Positions 9,330 through 32,000 of a DNA stretch of 32,000 nucleotides are shown here, piece after piece. The notes under the pieces were generated by a model. It saw nothing but the letters and a program-made list of their open reading frames with translations. It was not told where the DNA came from and did not search any database. The DNA comes from an uncultured Candidatus Micrarchaeota archaeon (GTDB taxonomy: Archaea; Micrarchaeota; Micrarchaeia; Micrarchaeales; Micrarchaeaceae). The position numbers and the translations under genes were made by a program. Where the stretch lies: positions 9,326 through 41,325 of the forward strand of contig CAVUGN010000011.1 of NCBI GenBank assembly GCA_963741095.1, given 5' to 3'. Position 1 is the first letter of the stretch. Each line of letters opens with the position of its first letter.

Positions 9330-10556
9330 ATGAAGAATGTCGGTAAAATAGTGGTCGGCATATTCGTATTGGCTGTTCTGGCTGCGATTGGGTTTTTGTA
9401 CCTGCACACCGGTTCATCAAGTGCAAATACCATCAACTACCAACCGATATTCCTTACGGATCCACCCTCGGTCCCTGCAGAAACTAGCGCGCTCATAATA
9501 AATTATTCCTTGTTAGAAGTGAATATCAACGGGTCGGCTGGTTCAGGATTGGTTATGGCGCCCAACGGAAGCGGTTCCATCAACCTGCTTGCGGCAACAA
9601 ACTCCAGCCAACTTATGGGGGTAGCAGTCGTGCCTGCGGCAATGAAAAATGCAACAATAAATGAGGTGCGCTTTAGTATTTTCTCGGCTTCAATAACCAT
9701 CAATGGAACCACAACTAACGTGATCGTGCCTAATCGCGATTTCACGGTGTACATAGTCGGCCGGAACAAGCTTAATTCGACCACTGGCGTGATCATTGAC
9801 TTCTCACCAACGATTATCACCATATACGGCAACTCTTCGACCGAATTCGCGCTTGTCCCTTCAGCAAGGGGCATTGTGGTGGCAAATGCCACATTGCACG
9901 CGCATGTGAACTCACGGATCGGAGAGAAAGTCGATCTAGACAATCTGGAAAGGGCAAGGATCGATAGCATTCGTCCTAATATAACCATAACGTCGGCATC
10001 GCTATCAACGCTTGGAAATTCTACTAGCCTTAGCATTACGGTGAAGGACAACTCCAACCAGAGCGTCATGTTGCATAACCTGATTGTGTTTGGCAATGAG
10101 AGCGTGCATACAATACCTTTCAATGAATTCAATTCAATCGTAAGGGGGCGATTCGGCTTGGGCATAGGCGGCTCAGAAGTTTTTGGAATGGGTGGCATCG
10201 GAACCTGGCAAAATGAGTCTACCAACACGACCCCGCATAACAATTTCGAAGTTCAAGGCGCACTCAGCGTTGGCATCGTTTCGCAGTCATTGAAAGTGCT
10301 GAACTTCCTTATCGCGGACAACGGAACCTTGGTCCTGCCGCGCACTAGAATAGGGGTGGACAACATCCTCCAGCAAAACAACGGACTCGGCGGATACAAT
10401 CTAAACTCCGGCTCCAGCACGACCTTCACCTTCAACGGTCCGATATCCTATGGCTTCGGGCACGTTACCATCGAATCGGTGGCTGGTGACACTTATCGAC
10501 TAGTTGTCTCAGGCGAGGAAGGAGCACGCGCGACCGCAAACCTGATTGCGACTTGA
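9330..10556 (+). CDS. Membrane-anchored extracellular glycoprotein (DUF4382-like pattern)
   Basis: N-terminal signal/anchor (IVVGIFVLAVLAAIGFLYL), then FLTDPP...LIINYSLLEVNING...INLL...VRFSI...ITINGTTTNVIVP, which resembles the DUF4382 layout. It has more than a dozen N-x-S/T sequons. Confidence 0.45.
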   Translation: MKNVGKIVVGIFVLAVLAAIGFLYLHTGSSSANTINYQPIFLTDPPSVPAETSALIINYSLLEVNINGSAGSGLVMAPNGSGSINLLAATNSSQLMGVAVVPAAMKNATINEVRFSIFSASITINGTTTNVIVPNRDFTVYIVGRNKLNSTTGVIIDFSPTIITIYGNSSTEFALVPSARGIVVANATLHAHVNSRIGEKVDLDNLERARIDSIRPNITITSASLSTLGNSTSLSITVKDNSNQSVMLHNLIVFGNESVHTIPFNEFNSIVRGRFGLGIGGSEVFGMGGIGTWQNESTNTTPHNNFEVQGALSVGIVSQSLKVLNFLIADNGTLVLPRTRIGVDNILQQNNGLGGYNLNSGSSTTFTFNGPISYGFGHVTIESVAGDTYRLVVSGEEGARATANLIAT

Positions 10557-24015: not shown

Positions 24016-24091
24016 GGGGAGCTACGCTAACCTGGCAGACCATCAGCCTTGGGCGCTGACAATCGGAGTTCAAATCTCCGGCTCCCCACCA
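24016..24091 (+). tRNA. tRNA-Pro (UGG) with encoded CCA; integration target
   Basis: Acceptor GGGGAGC 24016-24022 / GCTCCCC 24081-24087. The anticodon stem is TCAGC/GCTGA with loop CTTGGGC (TGG at 24050-24052). The T arm is CGGAG-TTCAAAT-CTCCG (24064-24080), followed by A24088 and CCA 24089-24091. The D stem pairs poorly in every register I tried, which lowers confidence. Confidence 0.7.
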
Positions 24092-24210
24092 GGAAAATTA
24101 TCGACGACAAAATTCGCCTTTTCGACGTATGTTGGAGATGTGGACTGTATTCAACAAAACTACATGTAAATCTGGTATAGTTCCAGGTATAGTCTTGAGT
24201 ATAGCTTATA

Positions 24211-24471
24211 TTATTTCCTATACTCATAATGGCTCACGGCCTTGCCGTACCTGCTACTTATGTTCTTTGAGATGTAATCAGCGACATCTAACGGCTCCTT
24301 GCCGTCCGTGAACCTGGCCTTGACCACGAATCCGCAGTCGCCTTCGGTCAGTAGGACCTCCTTGACGGACTCGAACATCATCAGCTTCTCTGCGATCCCG
24401 CCGGCGTCTGCGTTCTCTTTTGGCCTTACGAAATAGAGCCCGTACATCGCGCCTATTCTCTTTTTACCCAT
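24211..24471 (-). CDS. Stand-alone RAM (Lrp/AsnC ligand-binding) domain-like protein, 86 aa
   Basis: LYFVRPKENADAGGIAEKLMMFESVKEVLLTEGDCGFVVKARF fits the beta-alpha-beta-beta-alpha-beta RAM pattern (compare xVxxVxxVTGxYDxxxxV). It is nucleotide-identical to 29420..29680. Confidence 0.6.
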   Translation of the reverse strand: MGKKRIGAMYGLYFVRPKENADAGGIAEKLMMFESVKEVLLTEGDCGFVVKARFTDGKEPLDVADYISKNISSRYGKAVSHYEYRK

Positions 24472-24486
24472 GTCAATCCACCATAA

Positions 24487-24627
24487 TCATAATCGGTCTA
24501 TATCAAGCAACTTGACGAACACGCTGTGGCATCTGTCGCATTCCTCGATCACGAACCTGCCGTTCACCACCCGCTTGCACACCAGCCTTCCTGTTCTGCA
24601 CCTGCTGCATGCAACGCCGCCGTTCAT
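24487..24627 (-). CDS. 46-aa zinc-ribbon protein (not in the ORF track)
   Basis: Hand translation gives MNGGVACSRCRTGRLVCKRVVNGRFVIEECDRCHSVFVKLLDIDRL, with CxxC...CxxC. Its ATG overlaps the upstream stop (ATGA at 24624-24627). It is conserved as a 47-aa version in copy 2. Confidence 0.6.
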   Translation of the reverse strand: MNGGVACSRCRTGRLVCKRVVNGRFVIEECDRCHSVFVKLLDIDRL

Positions 24628-24893
24628 CCCTCGATCACCTTACCGTATTCACCGTCCAGTCCTTTCGATATGTACGCGGCAGCGTCCTTGGGTTCAGCAC
24701 CGACGAAAAACTTCACCTTCGCCAGGAACACGCCCTTGTTTTCCATCAAGTTGACTGCCTTCACGCGCTTTAGGGCAAGGAGCCTTTCCGCAAGACGTTC
24801 GCTGACACCGCTCTTCGAATTCCCGAAGTAGAGACGGTGCCAAACCGCATGGCTCGCGCTAACCCTTGTTATTTTTCCACCCGTATTACACAC
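24624..24893 (-). CDS. Stand-alone RAM-domain-like protein, 89 aa (paralogue of the 86-aa protein)
   Basis: RLYFGNSKSGVSERLAERLLALKRVKAVNLMENKGVFLAKVKF has the same pattern as the 86-aa protein. It has a GTG start and differs from copy 2 at 9 aa. Confidence 0.55.
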   Translation of the reverse strand: MCNTGGKITRVSASHAVWHRLYFGNSKSGVSERLAERLLALKRVKAVNLMENKGVFLAKVKFFVGAEPKDAAAYISKGLDGEYGKVIEG

Positions 24894-24939
24894 CCACTTA
24901 TTTGCTTACTTTTACATCATCCTGACAAACATGAAAATA

Positions 24940-25140
24940 TCATCTGGACGCTAAAACAGCCCGCGCGGATCCGGATCCGTCAAGCAGCATAACCGACCTT
25001 CCGGTCCTTTCCAGCTCGCACGCGTTAATGTGCCAAAGATATGCGACTGGATTCTCATGCTCCATACCGCACATCCAGCACTGGTATGCATTATCGTGCC
25101 CTCCCAAAAAGATATCTTTTATTCTTGTTCCCATGCCCAT
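24940..25140 (-). CDS. C2HC (C2H2-like) zinc-finger protein, 66 aa
   Basis: YQCWMCGMEHENPVAYLWHINAC gives C-x2-C-x12-H-x3-C, the classical zinc-finger spacing. It is the first gene of the micro-operon. Confidence 0.55.
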   Translation of the reverse strand: MGMGTRIKDIFLGGHDNAYQCWMCGMEHENPVAYLWHINACELERTGRSVMLLDGSGSARAVLASR

Positions 25141-25265
25141 TCTACCACCCCATCAATCATGAGGGTAGGGGGTTGCACCGCGGAAGCATGGTGATAATGT
25201 GGAGGACGAGCTTGCGCTGATCCGTAGAAAATTCTTACTTCCACCCCTGTACAACCTACACACCC
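25141..25265 (-). promoter_or_regulatory. Conserved 125-nt non-coding leader of the micro-operon (candidate structured RNA)
   Basis: By eye there are only 5 substitutions versus 30350-30474, so it is better conserved than the adjacent zinc-finger CDS. There is no ORF. Nested complementary segments and a GCAA-capped hairpin are possible on the minus-strand transcript. Confidence 0.35.
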
Positions 25266-25413
25266 ATATGATATTATGAACTTTGTTGTATATATAAGCA
25301 GCCTCGGTTTTTAAGCTGAAGAAACTATAAAAATTGCTATTTTTGTTTAATATTTTTCCAGTTATTCAAATATCATATACTGTATAATTAGGAATATAGA
25401 GGAGATTAGTAAA

Positions 25414-25423
25414 GTATAAATAT
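25414..25423 (+). promoter_or_regulatory. TATA box for the double-Lrp gene
   Basis: gtATAAATATc is centred ~28 nt upstream of ATG 25446. The same ATAAATATC core sits ~26 nt upstream of the paralogue start (30617-30625). Confidence 0.4.
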
Positions 25424-25445
25424 CTGGCTCTATACAATATTATAT

Positions 25446-26867
25446 ATGAAAGAGATACCTTTTGAGGCAAACAAGGAGCTCGAGCGCCTCAAGAAAGAGT
25501 ACAAAGCGTACCTTTACGTCAGGATCATAGACGGAAAGTTCTATGTCTACAAAGGGAGCTCAATTTGGGATAAAGAAACTAAGAAGGTGAGGGGGCTTAC
25601 CGAGTATCTAGGACGGATAGATGAAAACGGGAAGTTCATAAAGAAGATTTCTAACAAAAAAAAGATCCCGATACAGACGCTCGTTCAAGGAACTGCTCCG
25701 CAAGCCATCCAAACGCTGGTCGACCAGTCTGAGATAAAATTATTGAGAATCCTGAGCATGAATGCAAAGGCAGATTTGTCTTTTCTCGGAAAGAAGTTTC
25801 TAGGGATCAACTCTTCCGCAACATTCTACAAAGTAAGGCAGCTGAAGGAGAGATATGGCATAAAGGGTATTGCTGAAATAGATGTTACGAAGCTTGGCTA
25901 CACTGACTATATAGCTTTTGTGAAATTCGAGGGCGACAAGCCAAGCGCGGATAACATAAGGAAGGCCACTTTGGACGAAAGCCAGGTGCAACTAGTGCTT
26001 GCTACCAACGGCGAATATGACTTAATAATATACTTCTTAGCCAAGGATAATTTCGATGCATCGGAATTCATATTCAATTTGAGGTACAAGGAGCATCTGA
26101 AGACATGTATATCACAATGGTATTTCTCTCCCATTGACATATGTTATAACTTTATTCCATTAAGAGACCAGTTTTTCGAGCTGATGAAAGAAAAAGTATG
26201 GGTAAAGAGCAGGGAAAGTCAACGCAGATTGGAGGGGCAGCTCACCATCAAGGAGTACAATATACTAAGGGAATTGAACAGAAATGGTGTCGCAAAGTTC
26301 TCAGAAATGGACAAGAAACACGGGCTGGGCGGGGAAGAAACCGCATACATCTACGAAAAGCTTATTGAGAGAGGTATACTCAAGAGGATGACAGTAAGTC
26401 TTCAGAAAATACCTTTGCAATATAACGCAGTAATCATAATGGGTGTGGTTGACAACAATGGCTTCAGGCGGACTAGAGACAGGCTGCTGATGGATGTAAT
26501 AGAGGAGAACGGTACGCCTATCAACAAGTATTCTGTAATGGGAAACATAGGAAACCCTGATGGCGTCATGTTTATAATGCCGATAACTCCGAACAACAGG
26601 CTCGATGTATTCGAAAGTGAGTTCAAGGAGAGGATAAAAGGTGTGGCACTTAGAACTCTCATAGTCACTGACGTGCTCGTTGGTTCATTATGTTACAGGA
26701 AGTTTGACAACGCAAAGTCTAGGCAATACCGGGCACTGCGGATGGAGGGCAATACAGAGCTATCATTAGCCGATGTAGACTACGATGAAACAGTTAGAAG
26801 GAAGCAAGTTATCAAGAAAGGTGAGGATACAATAGAAGAACTACTCGCCAATAATGAAAATATATAA
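25446..26867 (+). CDS. Tandem Lrp/AsnC-like protein: N-terminal basic hairpin motif plus two HTH+RAM modules
   Basis: Module 1 is EIKLLRILSMNAKADLSFLGKKFLGINSSATFYKVRQLKERYGI (HTH), then YTDYIAFVKFEG...VQLVLATNGEYDLIIYF (RAM). Module 2 is EYNILRELNRNGVAKFSEM...YIYEKLIERGIL (HTH), then YNAVIIMGVVD...VMGNIGNPDGVMFIM (RAM). The N-terminus reads YLYVRIIDGKFYVYKGSSIWDKETKKVRGLTEYLGRI. Confidence 0.6.
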   Translation: MKEIPFEANKELERLKKEYKAYLYVRIIDGKFYVYKGSSIWDKETKKVRGLTEYLGRIDENGKFIKKISNKKKIPIQTLVQGTAPQAIQTLVDQSEIKLLRILSMNAKADLSFLGKKFLGINSSATFYKVRQLKERYGIKGIAEIDVTKLGYTDYIAFVKFEGDKPSADNIRKATLDESQVQLVLATNGEYDLIIYFLAKDNFDASEFIFNLRYKEHLKTCISQWYFSPIDICYNFIPLRDQFFELMKEKVWVKSRESQRRLEGQLTIKEYNILRELNRNGVAKFSEMDKKHGLGGEETAYIYEKLIERGILKRMTVSLQKIPLQYNAVIIMGVVDNNGFRRTRDRLLMDVIEENGTPINKYSVMGNIGNPDGVMFIMPITPNNRLDVFESEFKERIKGVALRTLIVTDVLVGSLCYRKFDNAKSRQYRALRMEGNTELSLADVDYDETVRRKQVIKKGEDTIEELLANNENI

Positions 26868-27030
26868 TGCAGGAATAGAATGCAATAACTACTGATGTAT
26901 CTTACAGAAATTAGCTAATTAAACTACCCTCCTGGTCCTTCCATATCTTCACCTGTCCAAACATCTCTGAAAAGGCTTAAATAGCTTGTGTCCGTTTGAA
27001 ATGGGCCAGCGCGAATGCTCGTATAAACAA

Positions 27031-27056
27031 CATCGAACCACGTCGGGCGATGTTGT
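27031..27056 (+). repeat. Cassette-boundary repeat, copy D (short, degenerate)
   Basis: CATCGAACCACGTCGGGCGATGTTGT aligns with the 5' part of copies A-C. It can form an AACATCG/CGATGTT hairpin. Confidence 0.5.
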
Positions 27057-27119
27057 ATAATTGTCTTCATCACGGTGCATAGATAAGTATTTATACTTAT
27101 TCTACATAATATACTTAAT

Positions 27120-27350
27120 GTGATGAAGATGACAAACATGACACTGGCCCTGCCGGAAGCGCTCACTGAGATAATGAAACGGCACAAGGACATAAAATGG
27201 AGCGAGGTGGCCCGCGAGGCCATCTGGGACAAGGCGAGGAAGCTGGAGCTCATGGACAAGATCCTCTCCAAGAGCGAATTGACCGAAAAGGACGCGTTGG
27301 CGATAGGCGCGAAGATAAACGAAGCCGTAGCTAAGAGGCATGGGTTATAA
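27120..27350 (+). CDS. vapB: Ribbon-helix-helix antitoxin (VapB-like)
   Basis: MTLALPEALTEIMKRH...WSEVAREAI is a CopG/RHH-type N-terminus. It overlaps the PIN gene by 11 nt. The ATG at 27123 is an alternative start. Confidence 0.65.
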   Translation: MMKMTNMTLALPEALTEIMKRHKDIKWSEVAREAIWDKARKLELMDKILSKSELTEKDALAIGAKINEAVAKRHGL

Positions 27351-27759
27351 CGTGATCCTGGTCGTGGACGCCAATGTGGTGATTGCCGCATTGGTAAAGA
27401 ATGGCAAAGTGCGTGAGATCCTGCTTAGCGACAAGTTCAAGTTCGTCGCACCTGATTTCGTGAAAGAGGAGACTCTGAAATACCTCGATCTAATAAAACA
27501 AAAGTCGGGACTTGCGAAAGACGACCTGGACCTGCTCATAACCCTACTGTTCCAAGAGATAGAAACCATACCCAGAAGCGAGTATCAATCGCAACTTCCC
27601 AAAGCCGAAAGGATGATAAAAAATGATGTAAAGGATGCACCATACGTTGCATGCTACCTGGCGCTGAAATGCGACGGGATCTGGACGAACGACTCGGACT
27701 ATGATGGAAAACCAGAACTGAAAGTGTTCAAAACAGAATACCTTCTGAAATTATTGTAA
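27340..27759 (+). CDS. vapC: PIN-domain toxin (VapC-like)
   Basis: LVVDANVVIAALV (first Asp), FVKEETLKYL (Glu), DAPYVACYLAL (Asp) and WTNDSDY (Asp) are the four acidic PIN residues, in order. Confidence 0.75.
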   Translation: MGYNVILVVDANVVIAALVKNGKVREILLSDKFKFVAPDFVKEETLKYLDLIKQKSGLAKDDLDLLITLLFQEIETIPRSEYQSQLPKAERMIKNDVKDAPYVACYLALKCDGIWTNDSDYDGKPELKVFKTEYLLKLL

Positions 27760-27780
27760 TCCACAACCTTTAGACTTGGG

Positions 27781-27854
27781 CATCGTCGAACCATGTTGAA
27801 CCACGTCGAACGACGTCGTTTCCCAATTGCACTTTTACGACGAAGAACCGGCTC
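27781..27854 (+). repeat. Cassette-boundary repeat, copy A (full length, degenerate att-like end)
   Basis: The sequence is CATCGTCGAACCATGTTGAACCACGTCGAACGACGTCGTTTCCCAATTGCACTTTTACGACGAAGAACCGGCTC. It shares both halves with copy C, including the terminal CCGGCTC of the att core. Confidence 0.7.
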
Positions 27855-27865
27855 GCGTCGTGCTA

Positions 27866-28186
27866 CTAGATCTCCAAACCCTCTTTGAGAGCGGCACTGA
27901 CCAAAGTGATACCTTTTGCCTCCCTCTCGAACTCATTTTTGGTGTAGCTTAAGAAATCCACGGGATAGTCTATCCCCTGCGATACGTGCCATTCCAAAAG
28001 GAGCTTGCTGATCAGCTTCTTTACGGGTTTCCTGATCACAACCAGAAGGTCCACATCGCTGTCCTTCTTTGCCTCGCCTCTTGCCGAAGAACCGAAGAGT
28101 ATGATCCGCTCTATTCCGTACGGCTTGGCGACGCTCTCCTTGAAGCCTTTTATCGTTTTTATCAATTGAGGATTGACCTTACCCAT
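27866..28186 (-). CDS. Minimal nucleotidyltransferase (MNT) of a HEPN/MNT pair
   Basis: ILFGSSARGEAKKDSDVDLLVV is the GSxxRG...DxD NTase motif. It overlaps the HEPN gene by 25 nt. Confidence 0.8.
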   Translation of the reverse strand: MGKVNPQLIKTIKGFKESVAKPYGIERIILFGSSARGEAKKDSDVDLLVVIRKPVKKLISKLLLEWHVSQGIDYPVDFLSYTKNEFEREAKGITLVSAALKEGLEI

Positions 28187-28584
28187 TCCAAAACACCTTC
28201 ACACTTTTCAATCACGTCCTTTGCTTCATCTTCCGAAACGGACCTTGTTACTGGATAGCGCGTATCCACGTAATACTCGGTAAGATCGGCACAATAATTA
28301 ACTATCTCTGCAGTTGCCTTAATGCTTTGGGCGAGCTTCACGAGGTCATGCGTCCTGTCAAATCGGCTCAACTTCTCTATCTGTGCAGCTTTCAACGCCT
28401 TCTCCGCTACCTGCTGGGCATAAAAGGATGCGTCCTTGAGCCTCTCGCTTTCATAGAGAAGCTTTGCAGTCACGAGATTGTCCTCGGCTTCTTTTATCCA
28501 CACTCGTGCATCATCTTTCATGTCCTCATAAGAATTTGCCTTAAAAACCTTAATAATGTTTGCAGTTGGGCCACATTCATCCAA
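28162..28584 (-). CDS. HEPN-domain protein of a HEPN/MNT pair
   Basis: AKLLYESERLKDASFYAQQVAEKALKAAQ, THDLVKLA and YYVDTRYP (the R-x4-6-H-type HEPN region). The likely true start is ATG 28521. Confidence 0.75.
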   Translation of the reverse strand: MDECGPTANIIKVFKANSYEDMKDDARVWIKEAEDNLVTAKLLYESERLKDASFYAQQVAEKALKAAQIEKLSRFDRTHDLVKLAQSIKATAEIVNYCADLTEYYVDTRYPVTRSVSEDEAKDVIEKCEGVLEWVRSILN

Positions 28585-28654
28585 AATATTTGAATATGTG
28601 TTTTTTTTAAGTGAGTCTTATTCCTTCGTAATGACTCCTAACTCGAAACACAAA

Positions 28655-28696
28655 CATCGTCGAACCACTTCGAACACCGTCGTTTCCCAATTGCAC
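28655..28696 (+). repeat. Cassette-boundary repeat, copy B (5' half only)
   Basis: CATCGTCGAACCACTTCGAACACCGTCGTTTCCCAATTGCAC matches copy A except for the 9-nt internal duplication in A. It diverges after TTGCAC. Confidence 0.7.
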
Positions 28697-28746
28697 CGCC
28701 AAAGTACCACACCATAAGAAATATAAAGCAGAAATGCACAATATTA

Positions 28747-28995
28747 GTGATAAAGATGGAAATGGAAGTGTACGGATTCAAAGCCAAGATAACCAAGGAA
28801 GGTAAGTATCTCATAGGCGAGATACCGGAGCTGCATGTAGCTGATCAGGCCAAGACCCTGAAGGAACTCGAGAGCGAACTCAAGGATGCGGTAAGCCTAG
28901 TTGTAAATCTTATCCTGGACAATCCAAAAGATGCAGCCAAGAACTTCGGTAACGGTGTCATAAGAAAGCTGAGCGTTCAGGTAATCCGCGCATAG
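28747..28995 (+). CDS. hicB: HicB-like antitoxin
   Basis: YGFKAKITKEGKYLIGEIPELHVADQAKTLKELESELKDAV fits the HicB/UPF0150 N-terminal fold pattern. It lies immediately upstream of hicA. The probable start is ATG 28756. Confidence 0.6.
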   Translation: MIKMEMEVYGFKAKITKEGKYLIGEIPELHVADQAKTLKELESELKDAVSLVVNLILDNPKDAAKNFGNGVIRKLSVQVIRA

Positions 28996-29003
28996 GTGTA
29001 TCC

Positions 29004-29225
29004 ATGTCGCGGTTACGCCCGCTGAAAAGTCCTCTCCTCATAAAGGTGCTGCAGAAATACTACGGCTACAACGCACGCTCTGGAAGCGGCAGGCATATAG
29101 TTTTGCAGGACTCGGATGGTCATACGACTGTGATCCAGCTTAACATGGAACTCGGCAAAGGCATCCTGAAGAAGATACTAAATCAAACTGATTTGAAGTG
29201 GAAAGAAATAGAGAAGTACCTCTAA
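29004..29225 (+). CDS. hicA: HicA-like mRNA interferase toxin
   Basis: LIKVLQKYYGYNARSGSGRHIVLQDSDGHTTVIQLNMELGKGILKKILNQTDL follows the HicA pattern (GF..x..GSH...P.H..l..G.l..Il). Confidence 0.7.
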   Translation: MSRLRPLKSPLLIKVLQKYYGYNARSGSGRHIVLQDSDGHTTVIQLNMELGKGILKKILNQTDLKWKEIEKYL

Positions 29226-29229
29226 ATGA

Positions 29230-29300
29230 CATCGTCGAACCACGTCGACCAACGATGTTTCTCAATCACACTTTTACGTCGAAGGACCGGCTCCCCACCA
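29230..29300 (+). repeat. Cassette-boundary repeat, copy C, fused to the duplicated att core
   Basis: CATCGTCGAACCACGTCGACCAACGATGTTTCTCAATCACACTTTTACGTCGAAGGACCGGCTCCCCACCA. It starts 5 nt after the hicA stop, and its last 14 nt equal the tRNA-Pro 3' end. Confidence 0.75.
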
Positions 29301-29419
29301 GGAAAATTATCGACGACAAAATTCGTCTTTTCGATGGATGTTGGAGATGTGGACTGTATTCAACAAAACTACATGTAAATCTGGTATAGTTCCAGGTATA
29401 GTCTTGAGTATAGCCTATA

Positions 29420-29680
29420 TTATTTCCTATACTCATAATGGCTCACGGCCTTGCCGTACCTGCTACTTATGTTCTTTGAGATGTAATCAGCGACATCTAA
29501 CGGCTCCTTGCCGTCCGTGAACCTGGCCTTGACCACGAATCCGCAGTCGCCTTCGGTCAGTAGGACCTCCTTGACGGACTCGAACATCATCAGCTTCTCT
29601 GCGATCCCGCCGGCGTCTGCGTTCTCTTTTGGCCTTACGAAATAGAGCCCGTACATCGCGCCTATTCTCTTTTTACCCAT
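29420..29680 (-). CDS. Stand-alone RAM-domain-like protein, 86 aa (copy 2)
   Basis: The protein is identical to 24211..24471. Confidence 0.6.
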   Translation of the reverse strand: MGKKRIGAMYGLYFVRPKENADAGGIAEKLMMFESVKEVLLTEGDCGFVVKARFTDGKEPLDVADYISKNISSRYGKAVSHYEYRK

Positions 29681-29695
29681 GTCAATCCACCATAA

Positions 29696-29839
29696 TCATA
29701 ATCGGTCTATATCAAGCAACTTGACGAACACGCTGTGGCATCTGTCACACTCCTCGATCACGAACCTGCCGTTCACCACACGCTTGCATACCAGCCTTCC
29801 TGTTCTGCACCTACTGCATGCAACTCCCTCGCTGTTCAT
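29696..29839 (-). CDS. 47-aa zinc-ribbon protein (copy 2, not in the ORF track)
   Basis: Hand translation gives MNSEGVACSRCRTGRLVCKRVVNGRFVIEECDRCHSVFVKLLDIDRL. It has the same ATGA overlap with the upstream gene. Confidence 0.6.
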   Translation of the reverse strand: MNSEGVACSRCRTGRLVCKRVVNGRFVIEECDRCHSVFVKLLDIDRL

Positions 29840-30105
29840 CCCTCGATCACCGTTCCGTAGTCGCCGTCCAGTCCTTTCGATATGTACGCGGTAGCGTCCT
29901 TGGGTTCAGCACCGACGAAAAACTTCACCTTCGCCAGGAACACGCCCTTGTTTTCCATCAGGTTGACTGCCTTCACGCGCTTCAGTGCAAGCAGCCTGTC
30001 TGCAAGGCGCTCGCTGACACGGCTCTTTGGATTCCCGAAGTAGAACCGGTGCCAAACAGCATGGCTCGCGCTGACACTTGTTACTTTTCCACCCGTATTA
30101 CACAC
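29836..30105 (-). CDS. Stand-alone RAM-domain-like protein, 89 aa (copy 2)
   Basis: It differs at 9 of 89 aa from 24624..24893. Confidence 0.55.
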   Translation of the reverse strand: MCNTGGKVTSVSASHAVWHRFYFGNPKSRVSERLADRLLALKRVKAVNLMENKGVFLAKVKFFVGAEPKDATAYISKGLDGDYGTVIEG

Positions 30106-30151
30106 CCACTTCTCTTGCTTTCTTTACCTCATTCTGACAAACATGAAGACA

Positions 30152-30349
30152 TCATCTGGATGCGGAAACAGCCCGCATTCCTAACTCGCCAAGCAGCATC
30201 ACCGGCCTGCCGGTCCTTTCCAACTCGCAGGCGTTTATGTGCCACAGATATGCAACTGGATTCTCATGCTCCATTCCGCACATCCAGCACTGGTACATAT
30301 TATCGTGCCCTCCAAAGAAGATATCCTTTATCCTTGTTCCCATGCCCAT
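30152..30349 (-). CDS. C2HC zinc-finger protein, 65 aa (copy 2)
   Basis: The zinc-finger core is identical to copy 1. The C-terminal ~15 aa diverge, with a 1-codon indel. Confidence 0.55.
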   Translation of the reverse strand: MGMGTRIKDIFFGGHDNMYQCWMCGMEHENPVAYLWHINACELERTGRPVMLLGELGMRAVSASR

Positions 30350-30646
30350 TCTACCATCCTATCAATCATAAGGGTAGGGGGTTGCACCGCGGAAGCATGG
30401 TGATAATGTGGAGGACGAGCTTGCGCTAATCCATAGAAAATTCTTACTTCCACCCCTGTACAACCTACACACCCGTATAGTATCGCGTCATATCCGGTAT
30501 TTATTAGATACAGAAGACAGGGCGGTAGTATTGATAAAGCGAAAACATTAAAACATATAAATTTATCATTAAGCGCTCAATCTTCAATTGTTATACATTA
30601 AGGATTTAACAAAAGGAATAAATATCCTCTTATTTGATATAACTAC

Positions 30647-32000
30647 ATGCAAGACGTTCCACCACAGATATCTGCTGCTTTCGAGAAAGTGAAGAAGACG
30701 TACCCGTTCTATGTCTCGCTGAAGAGGATATACGGAAAATATTACGTATACAAAGTGAAGGTCGTCTGGGACCGACTAACCAAAAAGACAAAAACAAATT
30801 CTGAGTACTTGGGCCGGATAACCAGCGATGGGAAATATAAAAAGAAGAGCATCACACCGAATGATTACCTGAGAAAGGCCGAGGCACTCATCGCTTCCAA
30901 AGGTGGGAAGATAACGTGGGACGGAATTGAGAAAGTCCGGGGTGCAAACGAGCAGATTAAAGAGGAACAGATCGAGGAAACTGTTGCCGACGAATTGGAA
31001 ACGAAGATACTGACTATATTGAGTATGAACGGCCGCGCGTCGATACCTTTCATAAGCAAGATGGTTGGTCTTAGCAATGCTACAACAGATTATCACGTAA
31101 AGAAGATCGAAGAGAAATACGGCATCAGATATTTTCCAGAGATAGACGTAGACAAATTAGGTTATGCCAGCTTTATGATATCCATAAAATTTGAAGATGA
31201 GGTTCCGAGTGCAGAAGAGATTAAAAGAGAGCTTAGCAAATTTCCTGGAGTACAACTTGCAATGGTAACTCATGGTAGATATGACCTAATAATTCATTTT
31301 GTAACCGGGACCGAATATATGCCAAATAGTTATGGATGGGCATCTCAGAATGAAATATATGACCTCCAAAATAATGCTTTTAGAGCAAACAAGGCAAAAT
31401 GGTACGTGTCAACGTTTTACAGAACATATGGATGCGTACCGTTGAGAAACGAATTTTTTGATATGATGAAGAAAATAGTGTGGGAAAAAAGCAAAGAGAG
31501 CAGGAGACCTAAGCCAAATCAACTTCTTCCTAGGGAGTATTTCGTACTAAAAGAACTAAACTTAGATGGTAGGTGCGAATTCACAGAAATAGACAATAGA
31601 TGCAATTTTGATAGGGGTAGATCAGATTACACCTATAAAAGATTAGTTGAAAATAAAACAATAAAACGCATCACGTTGACAATGCAGAAACCTCCGGTAA
31701 AGTATGTGGCAATAATCTATATGGATTTTATAAAAAGAGATGAGTTTTCAAAGAGCAGAGTGAATCTTTTATTAGACATAATAGAGCGGCGAACACAAAT
31801 AAACAAATACGCACTTGTTGGCGATGCGAGCATTCCATATGGTGGATTCTTCATACTGCCGATAACTCAAGATGGGCTACTAGAAAAAGTCACCGAGCAA
31901 TTAAAGAGCATAAGCGGCACAAACGTATACGCTCTTGTTGCAAGCGAGATAGTCTTAGGTAGCCTTTGTTATAGATTATTTGATAACGCATACTCAAGCC
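30647..32000 (+). CDS. Tandem Lrp/AsnC-like protein, divergent paralogue of 25446..26867 (3' end beyond the window)
   Basis: It is not in the ORF track because no stop is reached. Hand translation from ATG 30647 stays open to nt 32000. It has the same N-terminal motif (YGKYYVYKVKVVWDRLTKKTKTNSEYLGRI), two HTH+RAM modules (ILTILSMNGRASIPF...; VTHGRYDLIIHF; EYFVLKELNLDGRCEF...) and the conserved LGSLCYRLFDNA near the end. Confidence 0.65.
   Translation, partial: MQDVPPQISAAFEKVKKTYPFYVSLKRIYGKYYVYKVKVVWDRLTKKTKTNSEYLGRITSDGKYKKKSITPNDYLRKAEALIASKGGKITWDGIEKVRGANEQIKEEQIEETVADELETKILTILSMNGRASIPFISKMVGLSNATTDYHVKKIEEKYGIRYFPEIDVDKLGYASFMISIKFEDEVPSAEEIKRELSKFPGVQLAMVTHGRYDLIIHFVTGTEYMPNSYGWASQNEIYDLQNNAFRANKAKWYVSTFYRTYGCVPLRNEFFDMMKKIVWEKSKESRRPKPNQLLPREYFVLKELNLDGRCEFTEIDNRCNFDRGRSDYTYKRLVENKTIKRITLTMQKPPVKYVAIIYMDFIKRDEFSKSRVNLLLDIIERRTQINKYALVGDASIPYGGFFILPITQDGLLEKVTEQLKSISGTNVYALVASEIVLGSLCYRLFDNAYSS

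Follow-up and report, generated by a model that had tools for sequence, protein, structure and literature searches.

The window analysed here, 32,000 nucleotides of contig CAVUGN010000011.1, contains in its 3' part two tandem units (E1, 24078-29286, and E2, from 29287) that begin at the 3' end of a tRNA-Pro(TGG) gene (Table 1). The sequence CCGGCTCCCCACCA occurs in the window exactly twice, at 24078, where it ends the tRNA-Pro gene, and at 29287, at the end of a repeat that we call C, and the last 14 nt of the tRNA recur once (29287-29300). The DNA that follows the tRNA is duplicated as well: 24078-25274 matches 29287-30483, a second copy of ~1.2 kb at a distance of 5,209 nt, with 99% identity over the first 300 nt and ~90% thereafter. 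Since a copy of the tRNA end is followed by this 1.2 kb duplicate of the post-tRNA DNA, the window holds the start of a tandem array. Each unit is made up of a core, a left arm of ~60 nt, four small genes (module X), a divergent Lrp-like regulator gene, optional cargo, a right arm and the next core; in E1, three toxin-antitoxin (TA) gene pairs lie between the regulator gene and the right arm. The flank upstream carries housekeeping genes (RFC small subunit immediately before tRNA-Pro, PAPS reductase, an EF-Tu-like GTPase and a Y-family polymerase), and the GC content of the array is 41-47%, as against 45-56% upstream, where most of the flank lies at 50-56%.

Table 1. Features of the tRNA-Pro locus in the window. 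The point p1 is an end within the right arm that is described in the text; a slash marks where a repeat copy stops.
Feature	Position	Strand	Basis and remarks
tRNA-Pro(TGG)	24016-24091	+	Integration target; ARAGORN and Rfam
Core copy 1	24078-24091	+	Last 11-14 nt of tRNA-Pro, CCGGCTCCCCA plus CCA; repeated at each unit boundary
Left arm copy 1	24092-24161	+	AGGAAAATTATCGACGACAAAATTCGCCTTTTCGACGTATGTTGGAGATGTGGACTG; nhmmer profile
Module X of E1	24211-25140	-	Four small genes (86, 46, 89 and 66 aa); gene calls and duplicate
HTH473 regulator	25446-26867	+	473 aa, Lrp/AsnC-type; winged helix-turn-helix matches in both halves; variable centre of E1
Conserved 3' segment (seg)	26924-27026		Follows every regulator gene; unit-to-unit sequence comparison
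Repeat D	27027-27064	+	L part only, degenerate; ends at about p1, then VapB promoter
VapB (RHH)	27123-27350	+	Domain match
VapC (PIN_2)	27340-27759	+	Domain match
Repeat A	27781-27854	+	Full L (one extra 10-bp unit), R and first 7 core nt CCGGCTC, then unrelated DNA
MNT	27866-28186	-	Pfam
HEPN	28162-28584	-	Pfam
Repeat B	28655-28696	+	L only; ends at p1 (...CAATTGCAC/CGCC)
HicB-like	28747-28995	+	Pfam
HicA	29004-29225	+	Pfam
Repeat C	29230-29300	+	Complete right arm, L and R, running into core copy 2 (29287-29300); end of E1
Left arm copy 2	29301-29370		Start of unit E2
Module X' of E2	29420-29680, 29696-29839, 29836-30105, 30152-30349	-	Gene positions; module extends through 30483
Regulator paralogue of E2, 5' part	30647-32000	+	498 aa; leaves the window; full gene = L002 6484-7980

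The repeats that separate the TA pairs are copies of the right arm, in varying states of completeness. Ten distinct copies of this arm (~60-75 nt) were aligned, and it falls into two parts: L, which consists of CATC, two to four tandem 10-bp GTYGAAYNAY units and GTTTCYCAAT..AC, and R, which reads TTTTACGACGAAGRA. The 10-bp units of L (GTCGAACCAC) differ in number among the copies, and their spacing by one helical turn is what would be expected of a protein-binding arm. The core, CCGGCTCCCCA, is followed by CCA in the units with module X, and after every core comes the ~60-nt left arm, AAAATTATCGACGACAAAATTCGCCTTTTCGACGNATGTTKGAGAT, which an nhmmer profile also finds ahead of unrelated cargo. 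Right arm, core and conserved left arm make up every unit boundary in every assembly, and, as in tRNA-targeting genomic islands, an intact tRNA is thereby combined with direct repeats of its 3' end, at every boundary in the related contigs too. A cargo-less unit (L001 1640-1790) shows a regulator gene (HTH441), seg, the full repeat, the core and the left arm of the next unit in succession, and therefore identifies the repeat as the right end of the element.

This agrees, together with all of the unit boundaries, with one of two interpretations put forward in an earlier reading of these letters by themselves (the sequence-only reading), in which the repeat was the right-end sequence of an integrated element. 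That reading had also picked out four same-orientation repeats, D (from 27031), A, B and C, all of which the alignment places on the plus strand, and an intact attachment (att) core directly after C, which is indeed an exact copy of the tRNA-Pro 3' end at 29287. The four copies differ in what they retain: C is complete; A has L, R and 7 of the 11 core bases, reading CCGGCTC/GCGTCG at the position where the sequence-only reading had recognised a decayed att; B and D lack R, and D is the most degenerate. The 1.2 kb of identity past the core, the 10-bp periodicity of the repeat and the single point at which B and a D-type copy are cut (see below) are additional to what had been seen before.

The three TA pairs lie where the sequence-only reading had put them, and each consists of two small genes whose products have the toxin and antitoxin domains typical of type II VapBC and HicAB systems and of HEPN/MNT systems. 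VapC matches Pfam PIN_2 (E 5e-26), MNT matches NTP_transf_2 (E 7e-15), HEPN matches HEPN (E 2e-27) and HicA matches HicA_toxin (E 4e-7), VapB has a precomputed RHH_12 match, and the HicB partner has a weak match to UPF0150 (E 0.009). The modules seem from their sequences to have upstream regions of their own, and one of them is inverted. The order of the trio is identical in every contig that carries HEPN, HicA or VapC proteins, the trio travels as one block, and one array contains this block, with its four repeats, in two copies that are 99.2% identical over 2.5 kb. The start regions of VapB and HicB look alike (GTGATRAAGATG), a similarity of borderline significance (p about 0.06). HicA (window 29215-29225) and an unrelated peptidase S66 gene (L003 10872-10882) share their final 11 nt (AGTACCTCTAA) just ahead of the right arm, and the conserved right end may reach into the last codons of whatever cargo adjoins it.

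Exact-protein look-ups led to contigs in several ENA metagenome assemblies that are near-identical in the part they share (99.7-100%). A 574 kb contig begins at window position 24164, and consequently does not include the tRNA-Pro itself. Its first unit contains, in order, module X, HTH473, D, VapBC, A, MNT/HEPN, B, HicBA, C and the core; there follow module X, HTH498, D, a truncated VapB (VapB'), the 65-aa gene of module X, HTH459, D, VapBC, A, MNT/HEPN, B, HicBA, C and the core, and lastly module X, HTH470, a truncated integrase gene, APH and glycosyltransferases. The array includes at least five integrase-less units. In some units of other strains (L043, L045 and L051) VapBC is the only TA pair, and after it come a full repeat, an intact core and the module X of the next unit, so that VapBC did occupy a terminal right end there. 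In L003 it is a peptidase S66 gene that precedes L, R and the core, and the cargo found between the same arms further includes a GmrSD island, peptidase S9 with radical SAM, S58 with nitroreductase and a radical-SAM/SPASM island, all of it unrelated.

Four arrangements were seen immediately after tRNA-Pro across strains, namely a unit with module X, the GmrSD island, the radical-SAM/SPASM island and an integrase gene, Int69. The number of units beside the tRNA varies among strains, as do their presence and content at this same tRNA. The tRNA-Pro locus of other strains is represented by L067, L068, L069, L070 and L077, with a DUF2268/peptidase S58/nitroreductase unit among the variants. The encoded CCA of the tRNA in the window sits in the element-derived copy of the core, and in strains with other islands the tRNA ends in CCCCA, lacks the CCA and is followed by different DNA. 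In L043/L045 (= L073; 13300-14200) the tRNA-proximal side of the array is not joined to tRNA-Pro and RFC; a truncated module X links it instead to genes for prephenate dehydratase and racemase, which indicates a larger rearrangement involving the array.

The arms were found at this locus only. When up to three mismatches were allowed, the 16-mer TCGAACCACGTCGAAC gave five matches, all of them within repeat copies, against 0.36 expected, and none of 100 shuffles reached five. A profile scan for further copies, as had been proposed in the sequence-only reading, returned matches confined to tRNA-Pro arrays: both arm profiles match only unit boundaries or the interior of the TA block, always in one orientation, and neither matches anything in positions 1-27000 of the window, in the chromosomal flanks of related contigs or in 35 other archaeal loci from metagenome-assembled genomes (MAGs; nearly all Micrarchaeota). 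In total roughly 1 Mb of DNA was scanned for dispersed copies, of which only ~50 kb is non-array DNA from the source genome or near-identical ones. The sequence-only reading had named genome-wide dispersal of the repeat and an array invariant between strains as outcomes that would speak against it; in the DNA surveyed the repeat is not dispersed, and the array does vary. Scans of JGI metagenomes with an L-R pattern and a left-arm pattern, and of IMG/VR with the L-R pattern and with an alignment of the regulator, returned nothing, from collections that lack this lineage. A BLAST search of unit E1 against phages and plasmids gave no match, and none of the unit proteins matched PHROGs below E 0.001, the one match at 0.002 being to a family of unknown function.

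The internal copies carry the marks of recombination and loss. Repeat B and the better-preserved D copy of L043 (...CTCAACCATAC/TCCGCG) end within 1 nt of each other at a shared point, p1, just after ...CAAYYRYAC, and unrelated promoter DNA comes next. On their cargo side the p1 junctions show no conservation. The DNA after repeat B had by eye given the impression of a decayed R and core, which the shuffle test rejected (p = 0.67). The shared end is compatible with recombination inside L between molecules whose homology stops at p1, and makes L a discrete module without requiring a crossover at p1. A chimeric arm follows VapBC in the strains that have only this pair: its left 30 nt resemble A (one mismatch to A versus four to C) and its right 27 nt resemble C (two mismatches to C versus six to A), which is exactly what a homologous deletion between A and C, removing MNT/HEPN and HicBA, predicts. 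In addition, the VapB' fragment, which comprises the first codons of VapB, runs into the 65-aa gene of module X at a 9-nt microhomology, CAAACATGA (L002 8219-8230, equal to the E2/E3 junction of the L044 array), the rest of a unit having been removed; regulator-gene remnants include a C-terminal 125 aa and an N-terminally deleted HTH473 of 346 aa; and an integrase remnant precedes the peptidase S66 gene of L003.

Copies D, A and B are therefore best regarded as truncated arms that were trapped when neighbouring units fused, with later recombination between arm copies accounting for the gain and loss of blocks. The sequence-only reading had gone further and taken each TA pair for the remnant of a separate, decayed integration. 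This proposal is only partly supported. For it speak the R and partial core kept by A and the terminal position of VapBC elsewhere; against it speak the want of any left-arm remnant inside the TA block and a trio that always occurs as one block.

No integrase gene is present in the window or in units E1-E4, and in this the units of the window depart from tRNA-targeting islands, which have an integrase of their own. The only one in the full array is a truncated, XerA-like tyrosine recombinase gene at its distal end (L044 6613-7359, minus strand in the locus). Some 175 N-terminal codons are missing, a truncation common to all strains seen: the product aligns with residues 176-354 of a 372-aa homologue, an in-frame stop lies 45 nt upstream, and Pfam PF00589 matches positions 36-171 only. 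Its score with TIGR02249 (IntI) is 18 bits against a cut-off of 265, and it is also far below the XerA cut-off. Close homologues are 372-429 aa long, and those with a tRNA in view directly follow a tRNA-Thr gene; the truncated gene is 88% identical at the nucleotide level to that of a full-length integrase 4 nt after tRNA-Thr(TGT) in L053. It is probably the start of an older, larger island, from which the att site and the N-terminal half were deleted. The repeat was also considered as the Int(N) fragment of an SSV-type split integrase and rejected, because its reading frame is not conserved among the copies, owing to a 10-nt insertion in A, and the truncated integrase gene does not stand beside a core.

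Two further integrases share a family. Int69 (395 aa) directly follows tRNA-Pro in two other assemblies, where the flanking DNA is different, and Int397, a relative with 60% identity, lies at the opposite end of the near-identical contig of 574 kb; neither has L-R or the left arm nearby. At that end of the 574 kb contig, just upstream of the full-length integrase gene, a sequence looks by eye like an intron-containing tRNA (L081 9823-9935; CTCAT anticodon region, intron of ~40 nt), which ARAGORN did not call. L053 1460-4674 contains two inverted tRNA-Thr(TGT) copies, each followed by a 372/373-aa integrase gene, between copies or fragments of a pyruvate kinase gene; this looks like an inverted duplication around an integration site, or possibly an assembly artefact.

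All units encode Lrp/AsnC-type proteins. HTH473 has NCBIfam LysM/LrpA matches at residues 92-213 and a MarR-type match at 270-315, and the 86-aa X protein (X86) has a weak NCBIfam match to the C-terminal half of LrpA. Homologues of the regulator were found at 35 loci, labelled Micrarchaeota/Micrarchaeia with the exception of one uncultured archaeon and one Marsarchaeota MAG, and on the basis of this labelling the host is a probable Micrarchaeota (DPANN) archaeon. At these loci the regulator gene is usually single copy, often with an X86-like gene upstream; only that gene is conserved in synteny, which has no bearing either way on mobility, and no tRNA-fragment duplicates were found around the homologues in other archaeal MAGs. 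Within the array, module X is near-identical between units, yet the adjoining regulators share only 31-38% protein identity. This mosaic suggests gene conversion of the flanks or a swap of the central gene.

Taken together, the end of the window is probably a tandem array of small, att-flanked, integrase-less genomic islands at the tRNA-Pro 3' end, accreted by site-specific recombination and then decayed, a reading that includes the three TA pairs as cargo at the right end of one island type. The units keep both att sites, contain no recombination or transfer genes and stand in tandem with related elements, as do CIMEs (cis-mobilizable elements) and the products of accretion. We propose that a tyrosine integrase acting on core and arms would have integrated the units one after another at the tRNA-Pro core, the arms serving as the protein-binding arms of the attachment site and the integrase being supplied in trans, and that the units, having lost or never had an integrase gene, would be CIME-like. 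Deletion, homologous recombination between arm copies and illegitimate recombination would have fused and reshuffled neighbouring islands and left D, A and B inside; the directly repeated arms would stay substrates for more block loss and duplication. Addictive TA genes favour the retention of DNA that carries them. From this established property it seems reasonable to suggest that TA genes situated between direct repeats would penalise loss of the block, which would then be retained.

Several points weigh against this interpretation. The nhmmer left-arm profile detects no left-arm remnant within the TA block. The VapBC and HicBA modules begin at one and the same point p1 of L, within 1 nt, a coincidence that random deletion does not predict. 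No functional integrase that matches the arms was found among the full-length candidates at tRNA-Pro in other strains or on the near-identical contig, and no circular or empty-site junction was seen in assembled contigs. Furthermore, a regulator and X86 pair that is single copy in many related MAGs means that the centre of the unit may be host-like rather than element-like, and the restriction of the arms to this locus is bounded by the small amount of non-array DNA covered from the source and near-identical genomes.

One alternative makes L a cis-regulatory or replication element, with iterons bound by Lrp-like regulators or a replication protein, that travels with cargo operons and is only secondarily close to the core. 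The tandem 10-bp units and their variable number, the position of D and B some 55-65 nt upstream of the VapB and HicB start codons, and the Lrp/AsnC-type proteins of every unit would all suit such a role. We nevertheless regard it as improbable, as the most complete copies always stand at a unit boundary, fused to R and core, cargo-less units carry L with no operon to regulate, and the arms around unrelated cargo contain L too. A regulatory function of L is not exclusive of accretion.

It is quite unlikely that the array arose by in-situ segmental duplication and gene conversion within a chromosomal family of regulators, with no mobile element involved and the match to the core merely a duplication boundary. 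The single-copy regulator and X86 pair of many related MAGs fits this idea, and gene conversion would account for the 90-99% identity of module X between units. However, the regulator paralogues of the array differ from one another as much as they do from homologues in other genomes (26-38% identity), wholly unrelated cargo stands between the same arms and core, the unit number at the tRNA varies among strains, and the GC content lies below that of the flank.

The second interpretation of the sequence-only reading was a cassette-capture array, functionally like an integron, in which a site-specific recombinase would have inserted each TA pair as a cassette at L, a new type of recombination site. 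Cassettes with TA genes are typical of integrons (PMC9668308), each TA pair here ends in a copy of L, two of the cargo modules start at p1, and a VapBC-only variant exists. That variant, however, has the chimeric A/C arm of a homologous deletion, the order of the trio is fixed in every contig that carries it, with no reshuffling of single cassettes between strains, the three copy ends differ (p1, p1 and mid-core), and the cargo side of p1 lacks the conservation that conservative site-specific recombination would leave. The integrase that an integron requires is not there either, the only candidate being truncated, distal and XerA-like, and not IntI.

Nor do the repeats fold as attC sites would. 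Folding of each repeat on both strands, which the sequence-only reading had called for, revealed no attC-like structure: the folds of copies A, B and C are not superior to those of shuffled sequences (z +0.2 to +0.8), and of the two hairpins claimed for C and D, only that of D (9 bp, z -3.4 in single-strand folding) exceeds shuffles, whereas the 6-bp hairpin of C does not. For the 6-bp CGTCGT/ACGACG stem covariation is not above chance (132 of 500 shuffles equal it), and Rfam matched tRNAs only, both at gathering level and in E-value mode. Thus, none of the defining features of an integron (IntI beside the array, attC folding and individually mobile cassettes) was found, and the open reading frames (ORFs) do not show the integron trait of being short, mostly promoterless and co-oriented. 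We therefore consider cassette capture very unlikely; for a repeat that runs into an att core and has TA genes between its copies, accretion and decay are a better explanation than a new cassette system. The array of whole units is loosely integron-like in the way of any accretion array, which is a resemblance and not membership.

A variant of this idea, which we hold to be just as improbable, is that the L-R-core-left arm sequence, or L alone, is the site of a non-integron type of cassette exchange in DPANN archaea, in which some recombinase moves units or single modules. If true, the tRNA-Pro array would correspond in function to an integron and would shuffle regulators, TA pairs and defence genes, with the recurrent p1 junction and the phased 10-bp units as its signature. 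Finally, although the repeat is short, non-coding and multi-copy, it is exceedingly unlikely to be a generic dispersed repeat of the miniature inverted-repeat transposable element (MITE) or repetitive extragenic palindromic (REP) kind that lies between TA genes by chance, since all profile matches fall in the tRNA-Pro array in one orientation, with none in the other ~24 kb of the window or in related chromosomal flanks, which within the ~50 kb of non-array DNA surveyed argues against a dispersed MITE-like element, and it has neither terminal inverted repeats nor target-site duplications.

Archaeal elements integrated at tRNA genes are reportedly the subject of 'Gene capture in archaeal chromosomes' (She et al. 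2001). Tandem integration, integrase loss and recombination between tandem archaeal elements have been described (PMC8371274), mostly in Sulfolobales, Thermococcales, Methanococcales and haloarchaea. Like these, the units discussed here target a tRNA 3' end, with several elements per locus, loss of the integrase after integration and module exchange by homologous recombination; unlike them, they lack the backbone of a virus or plasmid (comparisons with PHROGs, IMG/VR, phages and plasmids gave no match), and they form an array of at least five. Another close parallel is offered by accretion and CIMEs, for example in the ICESt1-related islands of Streptococcus thermophilus (PMC5704250), where attL and attR are likewise kept, the integrase is lost, successive site-specific integrations stack elements at one gene end and deletions fuse neighbours into composite units. 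The present units differ in that their host is a probable DPANN archaeon, and in that they have no conjugation or mobilisation genes and are centred on a divergent Lrp-like regulator.

The tandem genomic islands in tRNA genes catalogued by Islander (PMC4383910) show the same succession of an intact tRNA and displaced 3' fragments at island ends, with several islands per tRNA; Islander, however, requires an integrase for each member of an array, and the units in the window have none. With chromosomal integrons that hold TA cassettes (the defining features of integrons, TA cassettes and archaeal integrons are treated in PMC9668308) the locus has in common a co-oriented repeated site between modules and TA genes that could stabilise the array against direct-repeat deletion. 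It is unlike them in the lack of IntI, attI and an attC fold, in modules that appear to have their own promoters, one of them inverted, in repeats that are truncated tRNA-type att arms, and in TA pairs that are not seen to move singly. On present evidence, the locus is a known kind of structure, probably an accretion array, in an unusual, probable DPANN host, and not a new kind of system.

Some smaller features of the units may be recorded. The stretch between the left arm and the first gene of module X contains a cluster of iteron-like sequence (24165-24230 and 29375-29435, CTGGTATAGTTCCAGGTATAGTCTTGAGTATAGC...CTATACTCA), and L003 has a comparable one ahead of its peptidase S66 cargo (9680-9740). 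Such a cluster may serve as a binding site or an origin. Two of the four X proteins (46/47 aa and 65/66 aa) are Cys-rich and by eye resemble small zinc ribbons or fingers, a resemblance that has no family-search support. On its minus strand seg contains a TTTAAG box (26974-26985) and a 6-codon Gly-rich micro-ORF (26924-26944). Such micro-ORFs (MEGPGG*, MEGGGTGGNG*, MDGGGSGGGGGGG* and similar; 5-15 codons) run convergent to the regulator 3' end, and have an AGGTGA Shine-Dalgarno-like motif as well as a TTTAAG/TTTAAA box ~40 nt upstream. They were detected at 13 of the 35 loci in a crude survey, and they occur after the regulators of L001, L002 and L044 as well as in other MAG loci such as L008, L019, L020, L030, L031 and L033. 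The Gly-rich ORF could be a micropeptide, a Gly-codon leader of an antisense transcript or a GGAGG-rich small RNA.

The mobile elements of DPANN archaea are poorly described, and we found no account of tRNA-targeted island arrays in Micrarchaeota in the literature, in a search that was not exhaustive. Notable here are the number of integrase-less units, the very divergent regulators between near-identical modules and the iteron-like right arm. The defined arm sequences, together with a series of strains from one metagenome set, could help in the search for the integrase and for products of excision. The locus itself is a hypervariable integration hot spot in a very small genome, where shared arms of ~60 nt are combined with differing regulators, TA pairs, defence genes and enzymes.

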